From assembly GCA_964577655.1 (NCBI GenBank), contig CAZNZR010000002.1, positions 1 to 61,326 of the forward strand: a stretch of 61,326 nt of DNA. The letters run 5' to 3'. The notes beneath the pieces were generated by a model. It saw only the letters and a program-made list of their open reading frames with translations, was not told where the DNA came from and made no database searches. Positions 7,043 through 28,544 of this stretch are shown piece after piece (within the stretch, counting starts at the first letter, position 1; each line of letters starts with the position of its first letter). The DNA is from an uncultured Candidatus Saccharibacteria bacterium (GTDB lineage Bacteria; Patescibacteriota; Minisyncoccia; Phycocordibacterales; UBA5272). The position numbers and the translations under genes were made by a program.

Positions 7043-8164
7043 ATGGATACATCTATTATTATTTTAATAGCTATTTTAGTGATATTTTTGATTGGATTAG
7101 TTGTTGTGATTTATATTTTAAATAAAAAACTGGGTGGCGGTGATAAGAGAAATGAATTATTTTTAATAGCAGATACTTTAAAAGACCTAAAAGATGATCT
7201 AAAAACTGATATTAGAGAGACTAGGAGAGAGCTTGATCAAAAGATATACGCAGGACAGAAAGATATGAATGAAAATGTAAAGTATCAATTCGAAGCTTCA
7301 CAAAAATTAATTCGTGATATCAATGAGCATCTAGGCAAAGTAAACGAAAGTGTAGTAGAAGTAAAAGAAGGCAGTAAGCAAGTCGTCAGTATGACAGAGC
7401 AGCTCAGTAATCTTGAAAAGGTTCTAACCAATCAGAAGCAAAGAGGGAATTGGGGAGAATCTTCTCTTGAACTCATACTTTCTAATTTTTTGCCAAATGG
7501 AGTATATGAGATGCAATATGGATTTAAATCTGGAGAGATAGTGGACGCTGTAATTTTTATAAAAGAAAAAGTTCTTCCTATAGATTCAAAATTTTCGATA
7601 GACAATTATCGTAGATGTGTAGAAGCAAATAATGATGAAGATAAAAAATATTTTGCAGAAGAGTTCAAGAAAGATATTAAAAAGAGAATAGAAGAGACAC
7701 AAAAATATATTTCTGAGTCAAAAGAAAATACTCTTCCATTTGCTTTTATGTTCATACCTAGTGAAGCGATATATTATGATCTAAATGCAGGCGATAACGG
7801 CAATCTCAAGATAAATACTCAAAAGCTACTAGATTATGCACAAGAGAAAAAAGTGATAGTCGTCTCTCCGACTTCTATCTTAGCTTATCTTCACCTTGTA
7901 ATCTCTGGAGCAAAAGATAGTCAGATAGAAAAGAATGCACTCGAAATAAAAAAGAAAGTAGAAGAATTAGGCAAGCATATACAAAAGTATGAAGAATATA
8001 TGCAAAAGCTTGGTAATTCTATCAATACTACTGTAAATCACTACAATGCCTCCTATAAAGAATTAAAGAAGATAGATAAAGATGTATACAAGATCACAGA
8101 CGGCGCAAATGAGATGACTGTAGAGCCTACGCTTCTCGATAAAGTTAATCTGGATGAAGAATAA
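7043..8164 (+). CDS. rmuC: DNA recombination protein RmuC
   Basis: N-terminal TM helix and coiled coil. Motifs 'RGNWGESSLELIL', 'PIDSKFSIDNY' and 'FAFMFIPSEAIY'. Confidence 0.85.
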   Translation: MDTSIIILIAILVIFLIGLVVVIYILNKKLGGGDKRNELFLIADTLKDLKDDLKTDIRETRRELDQKIYAGQKDMNENVKYQFEASQKLIRDINEHLGKVNESVVEVKEGSKQVVSMTEQLSNLEKVLTNQKQRGNWGESSLELILSNFLPNGVYEMQYGFKSGEIVDAVIFIKEKVLPIDSKFSIDNYRRCVEANNDEDKKYFAEEFKKDIKKRIEETQKYISESKENTLPFAFMFIPSEAIYYDLNAGDNGNLKINTQKLLDYAQEKKVIVVSPTSILAYLHLVISGAKDSQIEKNALEIKKKVEELGKHIQKYEEYMQKLGNSINTTVNHYNASYKELKKIDKDVYKITDGANEMTVEPTLLDKVNLDEE

Positions 8165-8193
8165 AATTTAAATTTTTACTTAAATCTCATCTG

Positions 8194-8222
8194 TTGACAC
8201 ACATATTATATTTTGATAGTAT
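8194..8222 (+). promoter_or_regulatory. Sigma70-like promoter (TTGACA-17 nt-TAGTAT)
   Basis: Hexamers read directly from the sequence upstream of ORF 8267. Confidence 0.5.
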
Positions 8223-8266
8223 ATTTTTGGTATTAAACAATTTTTGTTCATATAAAACATATTATA

Positions 8267-8809
8267 ATGAAAGATTATAAAGTTATTTCTTTTCTTGAGT
8301 TGGCGAAATTTTTATCACATAAAGATTCAACAGTCAGCCTTGAAATGCTTGGCGGTAAATTTGTTTTAACAGAAAAAAAAGTTTTTTCAGAAGAAGAAAT
8401 GAAAATTTTGGTTTCTGATTTTTTAAAGAAACAGAACCTAGCCTCTCTTTCTTTTGAAATAGATGAAGAAGATGATCGCTTTTTCTGTGAAGTTGAAAAA
8501 TTGGAACTTCCGAGACAAATTAAGTGGTTAAAGAGAGATTTAAAAGATTTTGTAGATTTCTGTAAAAGAAAAGCATATATCTCAGTAGGTCTATTTAATT
8601 TTCTTTTTCATGTCACAGAAAAGGAGGAATCATTTTTTACTCTTGAAGATATGCTCATAAAGATAAAAGAGTGTAAGGAGAATAAACAAAAACTTCCTTG
8701 GAAGGGGTATGGAAAAGAGAAAGAAAAAGAATTAAAAAGCTTGTTAATTGATTTAAAAGAAAACAAGGAAATAATATCTAATCTTTTCTTTAATGAAAAT
8801 CTCAAGTAA
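8267..8809 (+). CDS. Hypothetical protein (orphan)
   Basis: 180-aa ORF with its own promoter and no recognised domain. Confidence 0.5.
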   Translation: MKDYKVISFLELAKFLSHKDSTVSLEMLGGKFVLTEKKVFSEEEMKILVSDFLKKQNLASLSFEIDEEDDRFFCEVEKLELPRQIKWLKRDLKDFVDFCKRKAYISVGLFNFLFHVTEKEESFFTLEDMLIKIKECKENKQKLPWKGYGKEKEKELKSLLIDLKENKEIISNLFFNENLK

Positions 8810-17445: not shown

Positions 17446-17538
17446 ATGGCAAAAGGAGATTTTAGAGAGAGAAAAGAAGCTAAAAAGCCAAAGAAATGCG
17501 GCTGTATGGGAAAGTGTAAGTGTAAAAAAGAAGCTTAA
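17446..17538 (+). CDS. Unlisted 30-aa basic Cys-rich peptide
   Basis: Translates to MAKGDFRERKEAKKPKKCGCMGKCKCKKEA. It has its own extended -10 (TGATATAAT, 17406-17414) and its own terminator (17560-17590). Confidence 0.35.
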   Translation: MAKGDFRERKEAKKPKKCGCMGKCKCKKEA

Positions 17539-17559
17539 TTCTTTTCTTGAAATAAAATA

Positions 17560-17590
17560 AAAACATCTCAGAAATGAGGTGTTTTTATTT
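17560..17590 (+). terminator. Intrinsic terminator
   Basis: ACATCTCA-GAAA-TGAGGTGT plus T-tract. Confidence 0.7.
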
Positions 17591-17601
17591 TAAAAATAGA
17601 G

Positions 17602-17610
17602 TGGTATAAT
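17602..17610 (+). promoter_or_regulatory. Extended -10 (TGGTATAAT) for the MazG-to-nuclease operon
   Basis: Read directly from the sequence. It lies 10 nt upstream of the ATG at 17621, implying a very short leader. Confidence 0.45.
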
Positions 17611-17620
17611 TAAAGAAAAT

Positions 17621-17959
17621 ATGGAGGAGCTAAAAAAACTAGTTGTTGATTTTAGAGATAGGAGAAATTGGAAGCAATTTCATAATCCAAAAGATCTTTC
17701 AATTTCTTTATTATTGGAAGCTAGTGAGTTGTTGGAGCATTTTCAATGGAAAAATTTTGAAGAAATGGCAGAACATATAATAAAAAAGAAAGAAGACATC
17801 GGAGAAGAGTTGGCAGATATTTTATATTGGGTACTATTAATATCTAATGATCTAGATATAGATATAGAATCAGCATTCAAAGACAAGATAGAGAAAAATG
17901 AAAAAAAATATCCAGTAGAAAAATCAAAAGACAATCATAAAAAATATACTGAAATATAA
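17621..17959 (+). CDS. MazG-like nucleoside-triphosphate pyrophosphohydrolase (all-alpha NTP-PPase)
   Basis: 'RNWKQFHNPKDLSISLLLEASELLEHFQW' and 'EELADILYWVLLISNDLDIDI' carry the EExxE/ExxD metal-binding helices of the MazG/DCTPP1-like family. Confidence 0.8.
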   Translation: MEELKKLVVDFRDRRNWKQFHNPKDLSISLLLEASELLEHFQWKNFEEMAEHIIKKKEDIGEELADILYWVLLISNDLDIDIESAFKDKIEKNEKKYPVEKSKDNHKKYTEI

Positions 17960-17961
17960 TT

Positions 17962-19812
17962 ATGATAGTATATCAATCCACTAAATTAGGTTTTTGCTCA
18001 GATGTTAATAATAATATTATTGAGACTGAAATAGAAAAACTTTATATCGAAAATTTAAAGAGAAAACCTATAGAATCTGAGAAGAGATCTTGGCAAAATA
18101 GTATGATGTATATGGAGAACTTATTAAGTTCTTCTTCACTACCTAATGATACAGGAGTGATGATTGAATACCAGATACCAAATATGGCAAAAAGAATTGA
18201 TTTTATGTTAACTGGAAGAAATTCTGATGGAAATCCACATCTCATAATAGTAGAACTAAAACAATGGTCTGAAGTAAAAGAAACAGAGATGGACGGTATA
18301 GTACTAACCGCAATAAATGGTGGAATAAGAGAAACATCGCACCCATCTTATCAGGCTTATGTTTATGCTGAAACATTAAAAAGTTACAATGCTGCTGTTG
18401 CTGAGCATAATATAAATTTTTCTCCTTGTGCTTATTTACACAACATGCGAGATGGATCTGTTATAAAATCAGAATTTTATAAAGAACATATAGAAAAAGC
18501 TCCTGTGTTTGTAAGATCTGAAGTTAATGAATTGAGGGATTTTTTGTGTAAATTTATAGTAAAAGGTGATCAGGGTAAAATAATGAAAGCTGTTGAAGGT
18601 GGAGAAATAAGACCATCAAAACATTTAGCGGAAAATCTTAAAAAGATGGTTAATGGATCAAAAGAATTTTATTTAATAGATGAACAAAAAGTAGTTTTTG
18701 AAAAAGTTTTAAGTTTTACAAAAAATAAAGAAAATAAGAAAAAAGTTTTAATAATAGAAGGTGGTCCTGGTACTGGCAAATCAGTTATTGCTATTAATCT
18801 ATTATCTGAATTAACATCTTCGGGTAAAAATGTTAGATATGTAAGTAAAAATTCCGCACCACGTAGTGTGTATAAATATCATTTAAAAAATGTTCTTAAA
18901 AATGCTGAGATAGATATGATGTTTTCAGGATCAGGTTCTTTTACTGGTGCATATGATAACATTTTTGATGTTTTGCTTGTAGATGAAGCACATAGATTAA
19001 ATGAAAAGAGTGGAATGTTTAAAAATCTTGGAGAAAATCAAGTAAAAGAAATTATAAATTCATCTAAAGTTTCCGTATTTTTTATTGATGAAGATCAAAG
19101 AGTTTCTCTTGATGATATAGGAACAAAAGAAGAAATTCATAAATGGTCTAAAGAAATGAAAGCAGATGTTTACGAATATAAACTCGAATCTCAGTTTAGA
19201 TGTAATGGGTCTGATGGCTATATATCTTGGTTAGATAATGTATTACAAATAAGAGAAACTCCTAACATTGATTTTAAAGGTATTAATTATGATTTTAAAG
19301 TTTTTGATAATATAGAAGAATTAAGAAAAAATATAGAAGAAAAAAATAAATTGAATAATAAAGCAAGAATTGTTGCTGGTTATTGTTGGGATTGGAAGAG
19401 TGCAAAAGATTCAAATTTATTTGATATAGAAATAGATAATTTCAAAGCAAAATGGAATTTGAAAGAAGATGGTATGTTATGGATTATAAGACCTGATTCA
19501 GTAAAAGAAGTCGGATGTATTCATACATGTCAAGGATTAGAATTAGATTATGTTGGTGTAATAATAGGAGATGATCTTATTTGTAAAGACGGAGAAATTT
19601 TAGTTGATCCATCAAAAAGGTCCTCAGGAGACAGATCTATTCTTGGTTGGAAAAAAATAATGAAAGAAGATCCTGAAAAAGGAAAAGAATTAATAAAATC
19701 AATTATAAAAAATACATACAGAACTCTTATGACTAGAGGTCAAAAAGGGTGTTATGTTTATTGTGTAGATAAAGAATTAAATGAGTATTTGAAATCTATA
19801 AGTATAAATTAA
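17962..19812 (+). CDS. DUF2075-type protein: N-terminal PD-(D/E)XK-like nuclease plus SF1 helicase-like ATPase
   Basis: 'KRIDFMLTG...LIIVELKQWSE' (D...ELK), Walker A 'GGPGTGKS', Walker B 'LLVDEAHRL', 'FFIDEDQRV', 'CIHTCQGLELDYVGVIIG' and 'TLMTRGQKGCYVY'. Confidence 0.85.
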   Translation: MIVYQSTKLGFCSDVNNNIIETEIEKLYIENLKRKPIESEKRSWQNSMMYMENLLSSSSLPNDTGVMIEYQIPNMAKRIDFMLTGRNSDGNPHLIIVELKQWSEVKETEMDGIVLTAINGGIRETSHPSYQAYVYAETLKSYNAAVAEHNINFSPCAYLHNMRDGSVIKSEFYKEHIEKAPVFVRSEVNELRDFLCKFIVKGDQGKIMKAVEGGEIRPSKHLAENLKKMVNGSKEFYLIDEQKVVFEKVLSFTKNKENKKKVLIIEGGPGTGKSVIAINLLSELTSSGKNVRYVSKNSAPRSVYKYHLKNVLKNAEIDMMFSGSGSFTGAYDNIFDVLLVDEAHRLNEKSGMFKNLGENQVKEIINSSKVSVFFIDEDQRVSLDDIGTKEEIHKWSKEMKADVYEYKLESQFRCNGSDGYISWLDNVLQIRETPNIDFKGINYDFKVFDNIEELRKNIEEKNKLNNKARIVAGYCWDWKSAKDSNLFDIEIDNFKAKWNLKEDGMLWIIRPDSVKEVGCIHTCQGLELDYVGVIIGDDLICKDGEILVDPSKRSSGDRSILGWKKIMKEDPEKGKELIKSIIKNTYRTLMTRGQKGCYVYCVDKELNEYLKSISIN

Positions 19813-19816
19813 ATTT

Positions 19817-20392
19817 ATGATTTTTTCTATTTTCTATTTTTATATTTTTCTATTATCACATTTAATGCAATTATTAGATAATACATTTTTTGGAACTCTT
19901 TTTGCTGGTTTAATTTTAGCTTTTCTAGCTTTATATTTATATAAAGAGCAAAAGAAATTAGATATAAAATATAATCATAAAGCGAATTTAAAAAAAAATA
20001 TAAAAGAATTTTATATAAACATTGATACTTTATATAGAATATATAAAAATTATAATATCATTTTTGATATATCAGATATTAAAATTCAGAGTTTGTATGA
20101 ATATTTAGAAAAGCATAATTCTTATTCTAATAAAATTGAAGAAAAAATAAATAATAATATTATTGAAATTGATAAAAATTATGAATATTTAATATCGAAT
20201 TTATCTTTTGATGGTATAGATTTTAATGGTGATAAATTTAATGATTTAATAACCAAATATAAACTTTATATTATTTCAATTTCTTATTTAAGGTCATACG
20301 ATAAAGAAAGAAGGGATGAAATGCTAAAAGAGATAACTATTATAAGAAATGATATTTTAAATTATCTAAAAGAGATATTTGATAAAAATTAA
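19817..20392 (+). CDS. Hypothetical membrane-anchored alpha-helical protein (operon-internal orphan)
   Basis: N-terminal hydrophobic helices ('FFGTLFAGLILAFLALYLY') followed by an N/K/I/Y-rich, very AT-rich coding region. Gaps to its neighbours are 4 nt and 2 nt. Confidence 0.5.
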   Translation: MIFSIFYFYIFLLSHLMQLLDNTFFGTLFAGLILAFLALYLYKEQKKLDIKYNHKANLKKNIKEFYINIDTLYRIYKNYNIIFDISDIKIQSLYEYLEKHNSYSNKIEEKINNNIIEIDKNYEYLISNLSFDGIDFNGDKFNDLITKYKLYIISISYLRSYDKERRDEMLKEITIIRNDILNYLKEIFDKN

Positions 20393-20394
20393 TT

Positions 20395-23300
20395 ATGAAA
20401 ATAAAAATTTTAAACCAAAATAGTAACTTCGAAACTCGCTATAAAAAACTGAATGAAAAGCAAAGAGAGGCGGTGGATGCTCTAGATGGTCCTGTACTAG
20501 TCGTAGCTGGCCCAGGAAGTGGAAAGACGGAGATCATCTCACTTCGTATCGCAAATATCATAAAGGAAGGCCTAGCAAAGCCTGATGAGATACTCTGTCT
20601 CACATTCACAGATAGTGCCAGCAAGAATATGCTAGAAAGACTAGCTAAGATAATGGGTAGCACTGCTTACAAGGTTCCTATTTTTACTTTTCATGCATTT
20701 TGTACTTATCTGATAGATAGATATCCGGAGCACTTTTTTGACGCACATAGATATGAGCCTATAGCTGAGCTAAAGAGAAATGAGATATTAGAATCTATAT
20801 TCAAAAATCTTAAATATGGCAATCCACTCTTTGCTCGCCACGAAGAGAGAGGTTACGCATATTTTGATGATGTTAAAGAGAGGATTAAAAATCTAAAAGA
20901 AGCCGGTCTTAATCCTGAAGAAGCAAAAGCTAAGCTGATACAAAATAAGAATGATCTAGAGATCTTGAAGCCTATATTAGACGATATTCCTCTCAATCTG
21001 AGAGCTAAAGGAGCAGTAGAAAGATTTATAAATATTAAAGATCGATTTGAAAAAAGTGGGACAGAGCTTGGAAGATATTACGCATCTTATCTTAAAAAGG
21101 AAATAGAAAAAGAAAATCTAAGTGAAGCCAAAAGAAAGCTTTTTGAAAAAGATGAGAATGACAATTATATTTTTAAAGAAGAGAAATATATAGAGAAATT
21201 ATTAGCAGCAGTAGATATATACAAAGAATATCAGCTAGAGCTTGATAGACAAGGACTTTTTGACTTTGACGACATGATAATCTATGTCAAAGATAGACTT
21301 ATAAATAATAATACTCTTCGCGCAGAAGTGGAAGAGACATATCAATATATATTACTAGATGAATTTCAAGATACCAATCTCGCTCAACTAAAACTAATAG
21401 AATCAATAACTCATAATCCTGTCTTAGAAGGCAAGGCAAATATATTCGTAGTAGGAGATGATGATCAGTCAATATATAAATTCCAAGGGGCTGAGCTAAA
21501 CAACATATTTCACTTTAAAAATATGTATAAAGATGTAAAGACTATCGTCCTTACAGAGAATTATCGCTCTACTCAGAAGATCTTAGACTTTGCAAAAGAG
21601 ATAATAGAAAAAGCCGAAGAGAGGCTGACTAAGAATGATAAGAATCTTGTAAAAGAATTAATTTCTAAAAATAAAGAATTAAAAAAAGGAGAAATATATC
21701 TCAATTCTTTTGTAGAAAAAGAAAAAGAATATCTATTTATCGCCAAAGAGATCAAGAGTTTACTAGAAAGTGGAGTAGAGGCTAAAGAGATAGCTATCAT
21801 CTCAAGAAAGCATGCGGAATTGCAAGATATATTGCCTTATCTAGACGCGGAAGACGTGCCTTATAATTACGAAAGAAGAGAATCAGTATTTAATGAAGCC
21901 CATATAGAGCCTCTAATAAAAATCTGTAAATTTTTAGAGAATGTTGGCGAAAATAGGGAAGAAGAGGATGCTCTCTTGCCTGAGATTTTGTCTTATGAAT
22001 TCTTAAATGTTGACAGGATATCAGTCTGGGAGATATCTAGAAAAGCCTATAAAGAAGACAAATCTTGGCTAGAAGTTATGAGAGAGAGTGAGAATGAGGA
22101 ATTAAGAGAGTTAGCAAAGTTTTTTATAGAGCTAGCCAATATTAGTAAATCTGCTCCTCTTGAGATCGTCCTAGATATATTAGTCGGTAGTAAAGATATA
22201 GAATTAGAAGAAAATGATAAATCTGATGAAGAATCATATCACCATTCATTACCTCACTTAGAAAGTAAATTTGTCTCTAATTATAAAGATTTTTATTTTG
22301 GTAAAGACGCAATGAAGAATAATCTGGCTTCGTATATTCAATTTTTATCCAGTCTAAGAGTCTTTATCTATGCATTGCGAGAATACAAGAAAGGGGAGAA
22401 ATTACTTGTAAAGGATTTGTCTAGCTTTATAAAATTACACAAAGATTATAATGTCCCACTTCTTAATAAGACTAGCTTTGTAGGAGATAAGAATGCTATT
22501 AATCTCTTGACTGCTCACAAAGCAAAAGGGCTAGAATTTGAATATGTATTTCTCATCGCAAGCTCTGAGAAGATCTGGAAGAGTAAAGGTATAAATAATA
22601 AATTACCTCTACCCGTAAATATGCCTTTTGCTAGAAACGCTGATAATGAAGATGACTTTTTGAGATTATATTTTGTAGGAGCAACTAGAGCAAAGCATAC
22701 TATCTATATTACTAGTCGAGACGAAATCTTATCTTTTCTAGCAGATTTTAATTTAGAATCTAAAGAAGAGAAGATAGAAAATTCTGATCTTAAAAATGGT
22801 CTCAAAATATATAATATTCCTCCGTTTGCAAAGAGTGAAAAAGCATTACTTGAGAAGATCTTAGAAGATTATAAATTATCTCCCACGCATCTTAATAACT
22901 TTCTTAATATCGTAAAGGGCGGGCCAAGATTATTCTTGGAGCAGAATTTATTATTATTTCCTCAGGCAAAATCTTCTTCAGCTGTCTATGGGTCAGCTAT
23001 GCACAAGGTGATAGAAGAGCTATATGTCTTAACTAAGAAAGATAAACAAATACCTAATCTAGATACATTAGACAATATCTTAGAAAAAGAAATTAAAAAA
23101 GCTAGATTAGAAGTAAAAGAAGAATTGGATTTAATAGAAAAAGGTAAAGAAAAACTAGAAAATTTCTATAATCTAAACAAAGAAATTATAAAGAAAGAAG
23201 CTGCAGCTAGTAAGATGGAAGTTAACTTTTTAAACGAAGGAGTATTATTAGAAAATACAGAATTAAAAGGAATAGTGGATAGGATATTTGAAAACGATGG

Positions 23301-23700
23301 AGAATTGCAAGTGATAGATTTAAAAACAGGAAAGGCTTTTAAAGATTTTGAATACAGCAAAGCAAAAAAGGAAGATTATGAAAATATAAAAAAGCATAAT
23401 TACAAACAACAATTAATGTTCTATAAAATTCTTCTAGAAAATAGTCGCACTTTTAGAAATAAAGAAATAAAATTTGGAAAAATAAATTTTGTAGATGATG
23501 ATAAAGTCACAGAATTAGAAATAGATTTTGAAAATGATATATCAGGAGAAGAGTGGGAAGATTTTAAAAAGCTTTTAATTAATGTATTTAATATTATAAA
23601 AGATGTAGACAGATTGCAAAATATTGATATTTCCAAATACGACATAAACATAAATGGAATATTAGAATTTGAAAGGGATATTATAAATGATAATATATAA
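20395..23700 (+). CDS. UvrD/PcrA-family SF1 helicase with C-terminal PD-(D/E)XK nuclease (AddA/RecB-like)
   Basis: 'AGPGSGKTE', 'LLDEFQDTN', 'VGDDDQSIYKFQGA', 'TENYRST', 'TAHKAKGLEFEYVF' and 'VGATRAKH'. The C-terminus has 'GIVDRI...VIDLKTGK...QQLMFYK'. Confidence 0.9.
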   Translation: MKIKILNQNSNFETRYKKLNEKQREAVDALDGPVLVVAGPGSGKTEIISLRIANIIKEGLAKPDEILCLTFTDSASKNMLERLAKIMGSTAYKVPIFTFHAFCTYLIDRYPEHFFDAHRYEPIAELKRNEILESIFKNLKYGNPLFARHEERGYAYFDDVKERIKNLKEAGLNPEEAKAKLIQNKNDLEILKPILDDIPLNLRAKGAVERFINIKDRFEKSGTELGRYYASYLKKEIEKENLSEAKRKLFEKDENDNYIFKEEKYIEKLLAAVDIYKEYQLELDRQGLFDFDDMIIYVKDRLINNNTLRAEVEETYQYILLDEFQDTNLAQLKLIESITHNPVLEGKANIFVVGDDDQSIYKFQGAELNNIFHFKNMYKDVKTIVLTENYRSTQKILDFAKEIIEKAEERLTKNDKNLVKELISKNKELKKGEIYLNSFVEKEKEYLFIAKEIKSLLESGVEAKEIAIISRKHAELQDILPYLDAEDVPYNYERRESVFNEAHIEPLIKICKFLENVGENREEEDALLPEILSYEFLNVDRISVWEISRKAYKEDKSWLEVMRESENEELRELAKFFIELANISKSAPLEIVLDILVGSKDIELEENDKSDEESYHHSLPHLESKFVSNYKDFYFGKDAMKNNLASYIQFLSSLRVFIYALREYKKGEKLLVKDLSSFIKLHKDYNVPLLNKTSFVGDKNAINLLTAHKAKGLEFEYVFLIASSEKIWKSKGINNKLPLPVNMPFARNADNEDDFLRLYFVGATRAKHTIYITSRDEILSFLADFNLESKEEKIENSDLKNGLKIYNIPPFAKSEKALLEKILEDYKLSPTHLNNFLNIVKGGPRLFLEQNLLLFPQAKSSSAVYGSAMHKVIEELYVLTKKDKQIPNLDTLDNILEKEIKKARLEVKEELDLIEKGKEKLENFYNLNKEIIKKEAAASKMEVNFLNEGVLLENTELKGIVDRIFENDGELQVIDLKTGKAFKDFEYSKAKKEDYENIKKHNYKQQLMFYKILLENSRTFRNKEIKFGKINFVDDDKVTELEIDFENDISGEEWEDFKKLLINVFNIIKDVDRLQNIDISKYDININGILEFERDIINDNI

Positions 23701-23703
23701 ATT

Positions 23704-24585
23704 ATGTCTGATAAATACAAAGCCATCTGGCTCTCACATTCTTCATATAATGACTTTTTAAATTGTCCGAGAGGATATTATTTAAAAAATGTATACAAAG
23801 ATCCAAAAACAAAAAATAAAATTTCTCTTTTGTCTTCTGCGACCTCTCTCGGCTCCGCAGTACATCTATCTATAGAGACTCTACTCAATTATCCATCACA
23901 CGAGCGAGAAGAGAAGTTAAAAGATCTAGAAAAAGAATATGAGAGGATCTGGAATGAGAATTTTGTAGGGGAAAAAGGCGGATTCCAGAATAGTGAAGAA
24001 GAAAAAGAATATTATGACAAGGGTCTCGCAATGATAGAAAATATAAAAGAGAATCCTAACTTTTTACTTAATAAAATAATTAAAAAAGAAAGCTATTATA
24101 AAGGAGATATTTTGCCAAACTTTTTTATAGATGATGAGGAAGAAGTGTTACTTTGTGGGGTGCCTGATTGGGTAGAGTATCTAGATGATGACACATTACA
24201 TGTAGTAGACTTCAAGACTGGCAAAAATGAAGAAAAAGAAAATAGTACACAGCTCCCAATATATGTACTACTACTTGAGAATCTACAAAAAAGAAAAGTC
24301 ACAAAAGCTAGCTATTGGTATCTTCTCACAGACAAAAATATAAAACACAAGGAGATAAATAGAGAAGAGATAGAAGAAGTAAAAAATAAAATTGTCCAAG
24401 CTGGAAAAGAAATAAAAGATTTAAAAAATGAGACTCTTAAAAAAGACTGGAAAGAAATATTTGTATGTAAAAAAGGGGAGTTTGGATGTATTCATTGTCG
24501 TGACTATGAAAAGATATTGAATAATGAAGCAGAATATATTGGGAAGGATATTTATGGAAAGGATGGGTATATTTTAAGAAATTAG
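23704..24585 (+). CDS. Cas4/AddB-type PD-(D/E)XK nuclease with putative Fe-S cysteines
   Basis: N-terminal 'NCPRGYY', 'GVPDWVEY', 'HVVDFKTGK', 'QLPIYVLL' and C-terminal 'CKKGEFGCIHC'. Confidence 0.85.
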   Translation: MSDKYKAIWLSHSSYNDFLNCPRGYYLKNVYKDPKTKNKISLLSSATSLGSAVHLSIETLLNYPSHEREEKLKDLEKEYERIWNENFVGEKGGFQNSEEEKEYYDKGLAMIENIKENPNFLLNKIIKKESYYKGDILPNFFIDDEEEVLLCGVPDWVEYLDDDTLHVVDFKTGKNEEKENSTQLPIYVLLLENLQKRKVTKASYWYLLTDKNIKHKEINREEIEEVKNKIVQAGKEIKDLKNETLKKDWKEIFVCKKGEFGCIHCRDYEKILNNEAEYIGKDIYGKDGYILRN

Positions 24586-26393
24586 AATTCTATTTTTAAG
24601 AGATTTAGGGTGTCATAATCTGTATTGATTTTATGTTTAAATTTTATATTTGCTAATAATTCCTTATTTATTCTAAAATTATTTTTCTTTAATTCTTTTT
24701 TGATAGTTTCTAATTCTTTTTCATTGTGTTTTTGTTTTAATATGTTTTCAATATCTTTTTCTAAAAATTTTATTTCAGTCTTTTCTAAAGATTTTGCCTC
24801 AATTAATTCTTCAATATGTCCCGCAAGAGTAGAAATTTTTAATTCGCGAATATTTGCAATCTCTTTCAAAGATTTTCCATTTCGAATATATTCAAGAGTG
24901 ATCATCTGAGTCTTTATTTTATTTCCATATTCATCTTTTCGGTGATTTATTTTCTTTTTCTTTTCAGCTTTTTCAAACTCTTTCTTCTCTTCTTCTCTCT
25001 TTTTCTTTTCTTCTTCTAAATCGACCTCTTTTAAATCTCCATCACACGCCAATATGAATTCTTCTTGCTTTTTTCGTAGGTCTTTTGTAGCTTCTTGCGA
25101 AGAAGGAGCATAATATTTTTCTAATGCCTTCACTGCACGAGCAGACTTATCTCTGAATAATTTATCTTGAGCTACTACAGAGCTATTTACTCTTAGAGCA
25201 TCATTATGAATGCCTAGTAACTTTATATTTTCAAATTTACGCACACGAGATAGGGCCACATATCCCATCCCAGAGCCGAAAGCTTTTGCTAGATCTATCT
25301 CCGCAGCGTCCAAAGTCATACCTTGTGACTTGTGAACTGTGATGGCCCAAGCATAGCGGAGGGGAATTTGTGATAATTCTGCGAATACTTTACCGTCATC
25401 ATTTACATATTGCCATGATTCTAGTCCTACATTTATTTTTTTTCCATCAAAAGTCTTTACAATAGGCATATTAGCTCCATCAAATTCTACTACTTCTCCG
25501 AGTGTTCCGTTTTGGTATTCTCTATCTTTTGCATTTTTTACAAAGATGACTTTTGTACCTATTTTTAGATCTAGATATTCTGGAGCAAGACAATTCTGCT
25601 TTAGTATCTCAATCTGATTCTTTTTTCCTGTAGCTACCATGTGATAACTGTGTTCCTCTTTACTTTTAAGAGAGTTATATTTTTCAATATTAATACTATC
25701 AACGTCGATATTGTGAGTATAGAGTTTTAAGATGTCTTTATTTGTCTTATCTTCTAGAATACTATTTAATTTATGAAGTACTTTCTCTACCTCTCTCTCG
25801 AATCTGATATCATTAAGTATCTTAGTTAACGATTCATCTTCTTGGCGATAATTCTCCTCGAGATAGCAGACGACAGGATTGAGCTCTTGCCAGGCGGGGG
25901 AATTAAAAGCAAATTCTTTTCCTTCATTTACAATTTCTTCTTTATTAAAATTTTTAACTACAGGTGGAAGTTGAAAAAAGTCTCCACAAAAAATAATCTG
26001 TACTCCAGCAAAAGGAAGAGTACTGTTTCTAAATTTTTTAAAAAGAGTGTTTATCATCTCTAATCTTGATGCGTGTAGCATTGATATCTCATCTATGATG
26101 AGCACTTTCACATCTTGATATCTTTTAAATAATTTTTCATTCTGCTCTAGCTTGTCTAGAGTATAGCGATCCAATTTTTCATATACACCAATTCCAGTAA
26201 AGGAGTGTACTGTCTGTCCACCAATATGAGTAGCGGCTATACCAGTAGAAGCTGTGATTGATGGATTCACAGAGTGAGATTTTAGATATTCAATATATTT
26301 ATTGAGTACAAAAGTCTTACCAGTTCCGGCAGCTCCAGTTAAGAATACAGAATGTCCCATTTTCATTATATCCAGCGCTTCGTCTTGAGTCAT
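24582..26393 (-). CDS. PIF1/RecD-like SF1 helicase with C-terminal helix-turn-helix domain
   Basis: 'LTGAAGTGKT', 'VLIIDEISML', 'CGDFFQLPPV', 'ITVHKSQGMTLD' and 'YVALSRVR'. A K/E-rich linker precedes 'SLKEIANIRELKISTLAGHIEELI'. Confidence 0.85.
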   Translation of the reverse strand: MTQDEALDIMKMGHSVFLTGAAGTGKTFVLNKYIEYLKSHSVNPSITASTGIAATHIGGQTVHSFTGIGVYEKLDRYTLDKLEQNEKLFKRYQDVKVLIIDEISMLHASRLEMINTLFKKFRNSTLPFAGVQIIFCGDFFQLPPVVKNFNKEEIVNEGKEFAFNSPAWQELNPVVCYLEENYRQEDESLTKILNDIRFEREVEKVLHKLNSILEDKTNKDILKLYTHNIDVDSINIEKYNSLKSKEEHSYHMVATGKKNQIEILKQNCLAPEYLDLKIGTKVIFVKNAKDREYQNGTLGEVVEFDGANMPIVKTFDGKKINVGLESWQYVNDDGKVFAELSQIPLRYAWAITVHKSQGMTLDAAEIDLAKAFGSGMGYVALSRVRKFENIKLLGIHNDALRVNSSVVAQDKLFRDKSARAVKALEKYYAPSSQEATKDLRKKQEEFILACDGDLKEVDLEEEKKKREEEKKEFEKAEKKKKINHRKDEYGNKIKTQMITLEYIRNGKSLKEIANIRELKISTLAGHIEELIEAKSLEKTEIKFLEKDIENILKQKHNEKELETIKKELKKNNFRINKELLANIKFKHKINTDYDTLNLLKIEF

Positions 26394-26460: not shown

Positions 26461-27882
26461 ATGTGTTATTTTATAGAGATGATTTTTAATCTATTTAAGA
26501 CTAAAAGTAAAGTAAAAAATGCTGTAAAAAAAAATTCTGAAGAAAATATTTCAGGAAACTTTTCTTTTGGTCTTACAGAAGAATTGGTGAGAAGTATATC
26601 AAAGGACAAAAATGAGCCTGATTGGATGCTAGAAAAGCGTCTGGAGGCCTACAGGGCCTATAAAGAGACTCCACTTCCAGATTGGGGACCAAGTCTAAAA
26701 GATCTCAATTTAAATGAGATAGTCTACTATGTACCTAGCGATCTAAAAGAGCAAAATAGCTGGAGTGAGGTCCCAGAAGAGATAGCAAAGACTTTTGAAA
26801 AATTAGGCATACCAAAAGCAGAGAGAGAATATCTCGGAGGAGTAGGTGCTCAATATGACTCTGGAGTAGTCTATCACTCTATTAAAGACTCACTTAAAAA
26901 GCAAGGAGTAATATTTGAAAATATGGACACCGCTCTTAAACTTTATCCAGAGATGGTTAAGAAATATTTTATGAATGACTGCATAAAGATTAATGAGCAT
27001 AAATTCGCATCACTTCATGCAGCTTGCTGGAGCGGAGGAACATTTATTTATGTGCCAAAAGGAGTCAAGGTCCGGATGCCACTACAATCATACTTTAGAA
27101 TGAATAAAGAAAAGGGAGGACAATTCGAACACACTATCATCATCGCTGATGAAGGAAGTAGTGTAGAGTATATCGAGGGGTGCTCTGCACCAAAATATTC
27201 TTATTCTTCGCTTCACGCAGGAGGAGTAGAATTATTCGTAGCAAAAGGAGCTAAAATAAAATACAGCAGTATAGAAAATTGGAGTAAGAATGTATACAAT
27301 CTAAATACTAAAAAAGCATTAGTATATGAGAGAGGAGAAGTAGAATGGCTCAATGGTAATACTGGTTCATCAACTACAATGCTCTATCCATCATCAATCT
27401 TGCTTGGTGAATATGCGAGAAGTGAGAGTCTGGGCATCGCTATGGCAGGTAGAGGACAAAATCAAGATGTAGGAAGTAAAGTGATTCATCTCGCTCCAAA
27501 TACAAGCAGTGTCATAAAGTCAAAATCAATTGCAAAGAATGGCGGCATATCCAATTATCGTGGATATGTAGAGATCGGTAAAGCAGCAAAGAATAGTAAA
27601 GTAGTAGTAGCCTGCGATACTCTCATAATGGATAAAGACTCAAAAGCTCTCGCAATACCAGTAAATAAAGTTTCTAATAGAGATGTAGAGATATCTCACG
27701 AAGCAAAAGTTGGGCAACTAAGTGATAAAGAAATATTTTATGCGAACTTACATGCTTTTGATGAATATGGAGCACAGAGATTAATAATAGGAGGATTTGC
27801 AAGTGAAGTAATAAAAAAACTACCGCTAGAGTACGCGGTAGAGTTGAATAAGTTGATAGATCTAGAAATAGAAGGGATGTAA
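26461..27882 (+). CDS. sufB: Fe-S cluster assembly protein SufB
   Basis: 'HTIIIADEGSSVEYIEGCSAP' and 'HEAKVGQLSDKEIFY'. The start may be the ATG at 26479. Confidence 0.9.
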   Translation: MCYFIEMIFNLFKTKSKVKNAVKKNSEENISGNFSFGLTEELVRSISKDKNEPDWMLEKRLEAYRAYKETPLPDWGPSLKDLNLNEIVYYVPSDLKEQNSWSEVPEEIAKTFEKLGIPKAEREYLGGVGAQYDSGVVYHSIKDSLKKQGVIFENMDTALKLYPEMVKKYFMNDCIKINEHKFASLHAACWSGGTFIYVPKGVKVRMPLQSYFRMNKEKGGQFEHTIIIADEGSSVEYIEGCSAPKYSYSSLHAGGVELFVAKGAKIKYSSIENWSKNVYNLNTKKALVYERGEVEWLNGNTGSSTTMLYPSSILLGEYARSESLGIAMAGRGQNQDVGSKVIHLAPNTSSVIKSKSIAKNGGISNYRGYVEIGKAAKNSKVVVACDTLIMDKDSKALAIPVNKVSNRDVEISHEAKVGQLSDKEIFYANLHAFDEYGAQRLIIGGFASEVIKKLPLEYAVELNKLIDLEIEGM

Positions 27883-27896
27883 TTTAAATTAAATAT

Positions 27897-28544
27897 ATGA
27901 TTACTAATAATAAAATAAAATACGGACTTAAAATACATACAGACTTCACTGCTGAAGAGATAATTAATCATACTCATATAATTAATATTGATAAAAGAGA
28001 GCATAGAGTAATAAGAGAAGAAAGTATAGCTACCCTTTCCTTTGGAAAGGGGCTGGGAGATAGGACTAATAATTTCCTATCTCATACTATTATCAACTTA
28101 AATGTAGAAGGAGCAAGTGTAGAATTTATTGGTAGGTACAAGGCGAATAAGAGTCTCTGCGATGTATCATGTGTTGTAAATCACAATGCTGACAATACTA
28201 AGAGTAGTATTAATATAAGAGGAATAGCAGAATTAGAAGGAAAAATAATTTCTAGATCAAATATTTTCGTCCAAGAAAATGTGAGAGGAGTAGAAGGTGA
28301 AGAAAAATGTAAATATATTTTCGTTGTTGATGGAGATGAGAGGGCAGGGCTTGTCCGCCATAGCTTTAGCGAAGGTGGAGAGATAGACGCAATACCTAAT
28401 CTAGATATTAATAGTCACGAAGTGAAAGTCTCTCACGCTGTATCAATTTCTAAAATAAAAAAAGCCGACATTTGGTATGCCGGCTTGCATGGAGCCTCTG
28501 AAAAAGAAGCAGTAAAAAGCTTTGAGGAAAATTTTTTGAATTAA
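27897..28544 (+). CDS. sufD: SufD-like protein (short, C-terminal SufBD domain only)
   Basis: 'VNHNADNTKSSINIRG' and 'IPNLDINSHEVKVSHAVSISKI'. It is only 215 aa. Confidence 0.7.
   Translation: MITNNKIKYGLKIHTDFTAEEIINHTHIINIDKREHRVIREESIATLSFGKGLGDRTNNFLSHTIINLNVEGASVEFIGRYKANKSLCDVSCVVNHNADNTKSSINIRGIAELEGKIISRSNIFVQENVRGVEGEEKCKYIFVVDGDERAGLVRHSFSEGGEIDAIPNLDINSHEVKVSHAVSISKIKKADIWYAGLHGASEKEAVKSFEENFLN
28347..28379 (-). repeat. GC-rich mini-element copy inside the sufD-like gene (opposite orientation relative to the gene)
   Basis: GGGCTTGTCCGCCATAGCTTTAGCGAAGGTGGA, translated as 'GLVRHSFSEGG'. Confidence 0.8.

Follow-up and report, generated by a model that had tools for sequence, protein, structure and literature searches.

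We analysed a stretch of 61,326 nucleotides (nt) from an uncultured Candidatus Saccharibacteria bacterium (GenBank assembly GCA_964577655.1, contig CAZNZR010000002.1, positions 1 to 61,326), hereafter the window, which has a GC content of 30%. Our subject is a run of five genes on its forward strand, encoding a MazG-like protein, a DUF2075 nuclease-helicase, a membrane protein, an AddA-like helicase-nuclease and a stand-alone nuclease. An earlier note on this DNA, made from the sequence alone, had preferred to see in them one five-gene system, and had named as its alternative a MazG/DUF2075 module fused with an AddAB-like one for housekeeping end resection. The genes and signals are as follows (lengths in amino acids, aa):

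17446-17538, + strand: small open reading frame (ORF) of 30 aa, Lys/Cys-rich (MAKGDFRERKEAKKPKKCGCMGKCKCKKEA), the last backbone gene before a variable slot
17553-17592, + strand: intrinsic-terminator-like hairpin with an 18-bp stem and a U-run, which ends the upstream small ORF
17603-17611, + strand: extended -10-like box, TGGTATAAT, placed 10 nt before the ATG of the MazG gene (17621)
17621-17959, + strand: MazG-like gene, 112 aa, cargo gene 1
17962-19812, + strand: DUF2075 nuclease-helicase gene, 616 aa, cargo gene 2
19817-20392, + strand: membrane protein gene, 191 aa, cargo gene 3; start perhaps at 19865
20395-23700, + strand: AddA-like helicase-nuclease gene, 1101 aa, lineage core gene
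23704-24585, + strand: stand-alone nuclease gene ("mini-AddB"), 293 aa, lineage core gene
24582-26393, - strand: gene for a PIF1-type superfamily 1B (SF1B) helicase with a C-terminal HTH_40 domain, convergent, a backbone gene with conserved synteny

The tight packing described in the earlier note is real: the five ORFs are separated by gaps of 2, 4, 2 and 3 nt. So is the terminator upstream of them, since the RNA fold of the hairpin reaches -19.7 kcal/mol (z = -7.54) and none of 200 shuffles was as stable. The extended -10 box was found as well, read from the sequence as a consensus match only, in a region where promoter-like sites are not enriched; the start at 17602 that had been given for the run is this box, and the first ATG follows at 17621. 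At the other end, the stop codon of the 293-aa nuclease gene (TAG, 24583-24585) does overlap that of the convergent PIF1 gene (TAA, 24582-24584, minus strand). Profile searches agreed with all the domain calls, and the count of three superfamily 1 (SF1) helicases and three PD-(D/E)XK domains was right because the N-terminus of the DUF2075 protein carries an invariant D80/E98/K100.

The cluster is a composite of two units, 17621-20392 and 20395-24585, which merely share a likely transcript. We consider it likely that the first unit is mobile, defence-type cargo (a MazG-like protein, an Nhi-like nuclease-helicase and a membrane accessory) sitting in a hotspot before a lineage-core AddA-like/mini-AddB operon. 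It was the alternative of the earlier note that the comparison of genomes favoured, as the units are separable across genomes.

For the DUF2075 gene, a scan limited to a single genome of each species yielded at least 598 relatives, and we analysed the best 80 loci with up to 10 kb on either side. The DUF2075 proteins of these loci are 50-59% identical to that of the window over their full length, and come from Gamma-, Beta- and Deltaproteobacteria, Bacteroidota, Verrucomicrobiota, Bdellovibrionota, Acidobacteriota, Nitrospirota, Chloroflexota, several groups of the Candidate Phyla Radiation and a Methanobacterium metagenome-assembled genome. A same-strand homologue of the window MazG lies within 1.8 kb of the DUF2075 gene in 69 of the 80 loci; it is directly upstream, with a gap of at most 64 nt, in 59 and downstream in 7. 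No homologue of the AddA-like protein, the 293-aa nuclease, the PIF1 helicase or the 191-aa membrane protein was found within 10 kb at any of them (0/80). The neighbourhood check that had been proposed thus gave a divided answer: MazG and DUF2075 travel together, but the membrane gene and the AddA-like/nuclease pair do not travel with them. At none of the 80 loci, then, are the five genes found together as they are in this lineage, an outcome that the earlier note had named as refuting its preferred view. L104, a related locus described below, lacks the first three.

The 11 loci without MazG showed no common substitute; their upstream genes encode TPR, methyltransferase-HNH, NERD and unknown proteins, and two of them hold too little upstream DNA to judge. 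MazG was directly upstream in all five of the further contexts that we inspected (L001, L003, L005, L008 and L009, from three Patescibacteria, Gracilibacteria and Chryseobacterium). The pair is also annotated, as "nucleotide pyrophosphohydrolase" and "DUF2075 domain-containing protein", on a plasmid of the haloarchaeon Halalkalicoccus, and on a plasmid of Priestia it is flanked by a DUF3578 gene and a type I restriction-modification (R-M) system. Across 76 pairs, the pairwise identities of MazG and DUF2075 correlate (r = 0.46), a value reached by none of 2000 Mantel permutations. Since the two genes adjoin in 69 of the 80 loci, are carried on plasmids and have correlated identities, MazG-DUF2075 is a two-gene unit that moves and evolves together. 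In the library of papers that was searched, none linked MazG with DUF2075, nor Schlafen (SLFN) with MazG in a relevant sense.

The immediate neighbours of the pair (raw counts among 141 genes at 71 loci) include HNH (6), ResIII (6), Fic (5, of which SoFic 4), PLDc_2 (5, with DUF3427 in 4; four members match PADLOC models of type IV methyl-directed restriction endonucleases), AbiEi (4), type I restriction endonucleases (4), NERD (3), RhuM (3) and the PADLOC candidates PDC-S05 and PDC-S23. DUF2075 NTPases that adjoin DUF3427 modification-dependent endonucleases have been described by Lutz et al. At L005 the pair lies among MazE-like, TIR-like, Mrr, SocA and Fic genes, and at L009 a DpnI gene overlaps the end of the DUF2075 helicase gene. 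By these neighbours and by an Nhi-type architecture, the upstream genes do look like defence genes, as the earlier note had seen. No fixed third partner of the pair was found: DUF8370/DUF8371 accompanies it at only three loci and YgjP at a few, and HD_4 is practically confined to one lineage.

Several variations on the pair were observed. A DUF8370/DUF8371 protein of ~480-500 aa adjoins the MazG-helicase pair at three unrelated loci (L008 6134-7570, L106 7308-8810 and L036 ~8075-8689), and it may be an occasional third component. In the Halomonas-type loci L063 (10001-12391) and L074 (9932-12391), the DUF2075 helicase carries a C-terminal LexA/UmuD-type S24 peptidase and MazG lies downstream; the same fusion, also present in P0079 and P0094, suggests RecA/SOS-type control. 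A RadC gene (L056) or an HNH gene (L062) sits between MazG and DUF2075, and Algoriphagus vanfongensis (L070 7668-11857) has a 208-aa MazG-containing ORF followed by two different SLFN-type helicases in tandem (568 and 618 aa). On a 22-kb sequence deposited as Microcystis phage Mwe-JY31 (PP438423.1; L110 3657-5863), a DUF2075 protein is 53% identical to that of the window and has a 109-aa ORF directly upstream of its gene.

At the level of the locus, close relatives keep the backbone DnaB-CysRS-Ctp-L9-L27-…-AddA-like-nuclease-PIF1-SufBD-SerRS-Dus. What they hold in the slot before the AddA-like gene differs (identities are to the window proteins):

L104 (nuclease 78%): a single 160-aa gene, with MazG, DUF2075 and membrane genes all absent
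L105 (same species as L104, different strain): an N6_N4 methylase and a 176-aa gene
L102 (nuclease 87%): a methylase, a MutH-like endonuclease and a ClpP-like gene
L106 (AddA-like 72%): YgjP, MazG (62%), an SLFN-type helicase of another kind (528 aa, 33%), a DUF8370/8371 protein and a protein of 292 aa
L107 (AddA-like 58%): an RNase_T gene

The order at L104 is DnaB, CysRS, Ctp, L9, L27, ORFs of 116, 30 and 160 aa, AddA-like (1130 aa), nuclease (292 aa), convergent PIF1, two SufBD genes, SerRS and Dus. Because L102 and L104-L107 share the backbone and differ in the slot, the interval from the 30-aa ORF to the AddA-like gene is a slot that varies between strains and in which restriction or defence cargo recurs; the AddA-like gene itself is ancestral at its position. 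This is the flanking variability for which the earlier note had recommended looking. At L001 (DUF2075 76%), MazG-DUF2075, AddA-like, nuclease and PIF1 genes follow in the same order without the membrane gene, and PG_binding (opposite strand), Tag, SIMPL (opposite strand) and VTT genes interrupt them.

The second unit has the marks of the backbone. The AddA-like gene comes after Ctp-L9-L27 at one syntenic position in L102, L104, L105, L106 and L107, and this position is kept even where the flanking proteins of the relatives are only 34-61% identical. The AddA-like-nuclease-PIF1-SufBD junction is no artefact, as it recurs in L101, a 98-99% identical locus from an independent sample. The 293-aa nuclease has homologues only in Patescibacteria/Paceibacteria, with identities of 98, 94, 91, 87, 79, 78, 73, 64 and ~47%, down to 43%. 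Relatives of the DUF2075 protein number in the thousands, and their identity falls from 100% to 76% and then reaches a cross-phylum plateau. Composition also separates the two units: GC content at third codon positions (GC3) is 25% in the AddA-like gene, within the 20-27% of backbone genes, but 13.9% in the DUF2075 gene, and the membrane gene (GC 16.3%, GC3 9.9%) lies far under every neighbour. Thus, the AddA-like/nuclease pair is a vertically inherited lineage core, and in the window the membrane gene belongs with the upstream cargo and not with the AddA-like gene.

Both flanks are housekeeping: DnaB, CysRS, Ctp protease, L9 and an Ada-Zn-like protein on the left, and two SufBD genes, SerRS and Dus on the right. 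The PIF1 protein (PIF1 1.1e-41, HTH_40 1.2e-9 in the profile search) is encoded at the same convergent position in L001, L101, L102, L104 and L105. The two SufBD genes (473 aa and a short one of 215 aa; 26461-28544) come right after it, near the four-Cys nuclease, and the PIF1-SufBD order recurs in L101, L104 and L105; having SufBD beside a four-Cys nuclease is probably coincidental synteny. An ORF of 30-31 aa lies at the position of the 30-aa ORF in L102, L104 and L106, with tblastn similarity to L102 and L104, and we regard it as a predicted conserved micro-protein.

For the DUF2075 protein, the helicase profile SLFN-g3/DUF2075 (PF09848) matches residues 260-603 with an E-value of 9e-106. 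The PD-(D/E)XK-type motif D80/E98/K100, the Walker A sequence GGPGTGKS and the DEAH box are all invariant in the family. A sequence search of solved structures gave no match, and the AlphaFold2 (AF2) model (mean predicted local distance difference test, pLDDT, 80.6) has as its best folds in the PDB human SLFN11/SLFN14, RecD2, RecD, Dna2 and Dda. The protein is therefore an N-terminal PD-(D/E)XK nuclease joined to a Schlafen group-3 SF1B helicase.

This is the architecture of Nhi, a PD-(D/E)XK nuclease and a PF09848 SF1B helicase in a single polypeptide. Both Nhi of S. epidermidis (SERP2475; Bari et al. 2022) and Nhi-like (Millman et al. 2022) have this nuclease plus DUF2075 layout and are experimentally anti-phage, and PF09848 has been used by others as a marker of abortive infection (Abi). 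The window protein also shares with them the association with defence islands. However, its PADLOC matches to PDC-S41, AbiO and Nhi are only partial: the Nhi (PDLC02372) and AbiO (PDLC02350) profiles score 57-58 bits, and align residues 233-463 with profile positions ~175-375 of 470 instead of the full length. The window subfamily also differs from Nhi and Nhi-like in being nearly always paired with MazG (neither of them is described so), far more conserved and more widely spread, including an archaeal plasmid; the pairing in 69 of the 80 loci argues against a strictly single-gene unit. With partial helicase matches only, and no PADLOC 2.0 model for this MazG, the arrangement corresponds to no named system, as the earlier note had stated.

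The MazG-like protein matches PF12643 (2e-17; 63.5 bits against a cutoff of 27) and gives full-length alignments to dCTP pyrophosphatase 1 of mouse and human (DCTPP1/RS21-C6; 2e-17) and to the structure 4qgp (2e-21). Its metal-binding residues E33, E36, E39, E63 and D66 (EXXE...EXXD motif) are kept in at least 90% of 76 partners. From these alignments it is a predicted all-alpha NTP pyrophosphohydrolase of the DCTPP1/RS21-C6 type. DCTPP1 prefers 5-modified dCTP, and by homology the substrate of the window enzyme may be dCTP or 5-modified dCTP, which would be split into the monophosphate and pyrophosphate.

The 191-aa membrane protein had been called an orphan. It is one insofar as it matches nothing in Pfam, PADLOC or NCBIfam, but it belongs to a real family: an exhaustive search of a representative library retrieved 39 relatives of ~180 aa. 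They share the motif LDNTFxGTLxAGxLLAxxGLxLYRxQK, in which N22, T23, G26, A30, G31 and Y42 are invariant. As the relatives align from about residue 15, the true start may be M17 (19865), which would widen one of the intergenic gaps to 52 nt. The AF2 model (pLDDT 91) shows a transmembrane (TM) helix that continues as a long helix, together with a four-helix bundle, for which a fold search of the PDB found only generic helical bundles, all with E > 0.1. A metagenome scan with a narrow alignment of the family gave eight loci; a scan of viral contigs gave nothing confirmed.

The homologues sit at recurrent places in restriction-type operons. In L091, L092 and L099 the gene lies between hsdS and hsdR of type I R-M systems, with overlapping stop and start codons. 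In L094, L095 and L100 it comes after an Eco57I-type methylase, a T5orf172/MUG113-ResIII helicase and a 245-aa HARE-HTH-PD-(D/E)XK protein, and in L093 and L096 after the same 245-aa nuclease; in L098 it follows a RelA_SpoT-domain protein. The 191-aa protein is thus a real, unannotated accessory family of restriction-type operons. Its position between hsd genes is like that of the PrrC/RloC-type accessories inserted in type I R-M operons, and homologues also occur at the 3' end of other restriction-like operons. However, with its TM helix, four-helix bundle and lack of a Pfam family, it has no sequence or fold relation to the known embedded R-M accessories. As a separate observation, the 245-aa HARE-HTH plus PD-(D/E)XK gene followed by the membrane homologue forms a recurrent two-gene unit (L093 7260-8600, L094 7257-8597, L095, L096 and L100) that is linked to operons of an Eco57I-type methylase and a T5orf172 helicase, or occurs in the vicinity of type I HsdR, and is possibly an undescribed restriction accessory pair.

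For the second unit, the 1101-aa protein has the layout of AddA, RecB and AdnB: a UvrD-like SF1A motor (UvrD-helicase 3.5e-63, UvrD_C 3.8e-28) with a C-terminal RecB-type nuclease domain (PDDEXK_1 7.8e-16), the latter without a Cys motif. The 293-aa protein (PDDEXK_1 5.7e-24, Cas_Cas4 5e-6) keeps C21, C255, C262, C265, D155, D169-x-K171 and Q183...Y187 invariant in 20 homologues, and on this conservation we classify it as a predicted nuclease of the RecB/Cas4/AddB type with a four-Cys motif. The likeness to AddAB, RecBCD and AdnAB has its limits. In the NCBIfam equivalog models (TIGR02784/02785/02786), the AddA scores are 123-128 bits against cutoffs of 708-861 and the AddB scores 15-26 bits against 486; a PcrA model scores higher on the motor, 258 bits, which is also far below its equivalog cutoff. 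AddB has an inactive-helicase scaffold of ~900 aa, whereas the 293-aa partner has the nuclease motifs and the four Cys without a helicase-like scaffold, and differently from AddAB, other genes separate the AddA-like and nuclease genes in some relatives. By sequence criteria, the pair appears to be a minimal AddAB-like variant and not a member of AddAB.

Two other known systems were considered and rejected. For Gabija, GajB models match the generic UvrD core (2.4e-77), but there was no GajA match in the six proteins. For CRISPR Cas4, the profiles stay below the cutoff (38.8 against 65 bits), the neighbours of the 293-aa nuclease are helicases and SufBD, and the window has no repeat or tandem array, cas genes or match to a CRISPR RNA family.

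At the functional level, the first unit is probably anti-phage. By analogy with Nhi, the nuclease-helicase would unwind and degrade invading or replicating phage DNA, while a translationally coupled MazG would hydrolyse dCTP-type nucleotides, possibly 5-modified, and in this way starve or de-modify phage DNA synthesis, or else tune the nuclease. Hydrolysis of 5-modified dCTP would fit the modification-dependent endonucleases that recur as neighbours. The membrane protein would be an optional accessory, effector or anchor. The AddA-like/mini-AddB pair would resect DNA ends as housekeeping repair, with at most an incidental downstream action on breaks.

Attack on the dNTP pool as a concept is reportedly used by other defence enzymes, the nucleotide-depleting dCTP deaminase and dGTPase that Tal and colleagues are said to have described in 2022. 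The resemblance would be one of concept, and the window enzyme differs in being an all-alpha MazG/DCTPP1 protein with a nuclease-helicase partner. There is also a likeness to animal proteins, as SLFN11/SLFN14 are the best fold matches of the helicase and DCTPP1 aligns in full with its partner, although where Schlafen proteins have their N-terminal RNase core, the bacterial one carries a PD-(D/E)XK domain. We know of no operon-like link between SLFN and DCTPP1 in animals.

Several observations weigh against a mobile defence cargo placed beside an independent core operon. The defence role of the first unit is argued from architecture and neighbourhood only, and the conservation of DUF2075 (50-59% across phyla) is unusual for an immune gene and fits a housekeeping one too. 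In the window the five genes almost certainly share one transcript, as gaps of at most 4 nt leave no space for promoters or terminators. Three lineages of Paceibacteria, those of the window, L106 and L001, have a MazG-SLFN helicase set 0-2.7 kb before an AddA-like gene, so there may be a lineage-specific functional link between them. In addition, the AddA-like protein of the window shares only 39-40% identity with its counterparts in L001, L102 and L104, and these share 65-69% with one another; the clade of the window protein includes L106 (72%) and L107 (58%). The window nuclease is 87% identical to that of L102, 78% to that of L104, 48% to that of L001 and 44% to that of L106. The two genes thus have discordant histories, since to the same relatives (L102 and L104) one is 39-40% and the other 78-87% identical, and this points to a recombination breakpoint or allele replacement between them. 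The AddA-like gene might even have arrived or been exchanged in the same event as the cargo.

One competing explanation is the five-gene system, in which MazG and DUF2075 would sense or cut foreign DNA, the membrane protein would signal or kill, and the AddA-like/nuclease pair would degrade the cut DNA. The single promoter-like box and terminator upstream, the 2-4 nt gaps, the lack of any internal terminator found within the run, the MazG-SLFN sets just upstream of three AddA-like genes and the discordance of the window AddA-like gene all speak for it. Nevertheless, we regard it as very improbable, and the co-occurrence data largely refute it: AddA-like, nuclease and membrane genes were near none of the 80 DUF2075 loci, at L104 the same backbone includes the AddA-like/nuclease pair but no cargo, and L003, L005, L008 and L009 carry MazG-DUF2075 without an AddA-like gene. 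At L001, opposite-strand and unrelated genes interrupt the series, and in the window the AddA-like gene, but not the DUF2075 and membrane genes, has a backbone-like composition. The discordance does not rescue the system, because both AddA-like clades hold the same syntenic position and the composition of the gene is native-like. Even less credible, and already refuted, is the idea that the 191-aa ORF is a spurious AT-rich frame, so that the packing is incidental and only four genes are real. A GC content of 16%, the lack of Pfam, PADLOC and NCBIfam matches and the lack of an obvious ribosome-binding site would suit it; the 39 relatives of similar length with the invariant N22-T23-x-x-G26...A30-G31...Y42 membrane motif, the confident AF2 model and the fixed positions of homologues in other operons contradict it.

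A more serious competitor, which we still find unlikely, makes MazG-DUF2075 a mobile module of nucleotide sanitation and DNA repair. MazG would remove non-canonical dCTP derivatives, the nuclease-helicase would process DNA containing them or stalled replication in an SLFN11-like manner, and the position beside repair genes would be meaningful. The very high conservation across phyla (mean pairwise identity 57%), the full-length homology to DCTPP1, the S24 domain of some members with its suggestion of SOS/RecA control, the RadC gene between MazG and DUF2075 in L056, a MutT gene near the pair on the Priestia plasmid and the AddA-like and PIF1 genes beside the window pair are all in agreement with such a role. 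However, the pair is patchy and absent from close relatives on the same backbone, it is carried by plasmids, restriction, Abi and toxin-antitoxin genes abound around it, and its architecture is common to the validated defence proteins Nhi and Nhi-like.

Returning to the defence-type cargo in a hotspot, which we prefer, a bolder and more tentative proposal concerns the pair itself, and we hold it to be less likely than not. MazG and the PD-(D/E)XK-DUF2075 protein could form an unnamed two-gene immune module, spread horizontally among many bacterial phyla and archaeal plasmids, with the TM protein possibly an optional addition, that couples the destruction of dCTP-type nucleotides, perhaps 5-modified ones specific to phages, with an Nhi-like degradation of foreign DNA during its replication. 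If so, prokaryotes would pair activities that animals deploy separately, namely DCTPP1/SAMHD1-type pool control and Schlafen-type restriction.

Finally, the locus illustrates that tight spacing alone does not define a system, as here a mobile cassette is spliced into the leader of a core operon. It also offers further leads, a possible minimal end-resection pair of AddA and a nuclease only, and a new membrane family that accompanies restriction systems. The MazG-Nhi-like pair has at least 598 relatives in species-representative genomes and is in no PADLOC 2.0 model; if immune, it would add a nucleotide-pyrophosphatase arm to nucleases of the Nhi/Schlafen type, and may explain how phages with modified cytosine are countered. 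For Patescibacteria, whose immune repertoire is little studied, the locus is a strain-variable defence hotspot.

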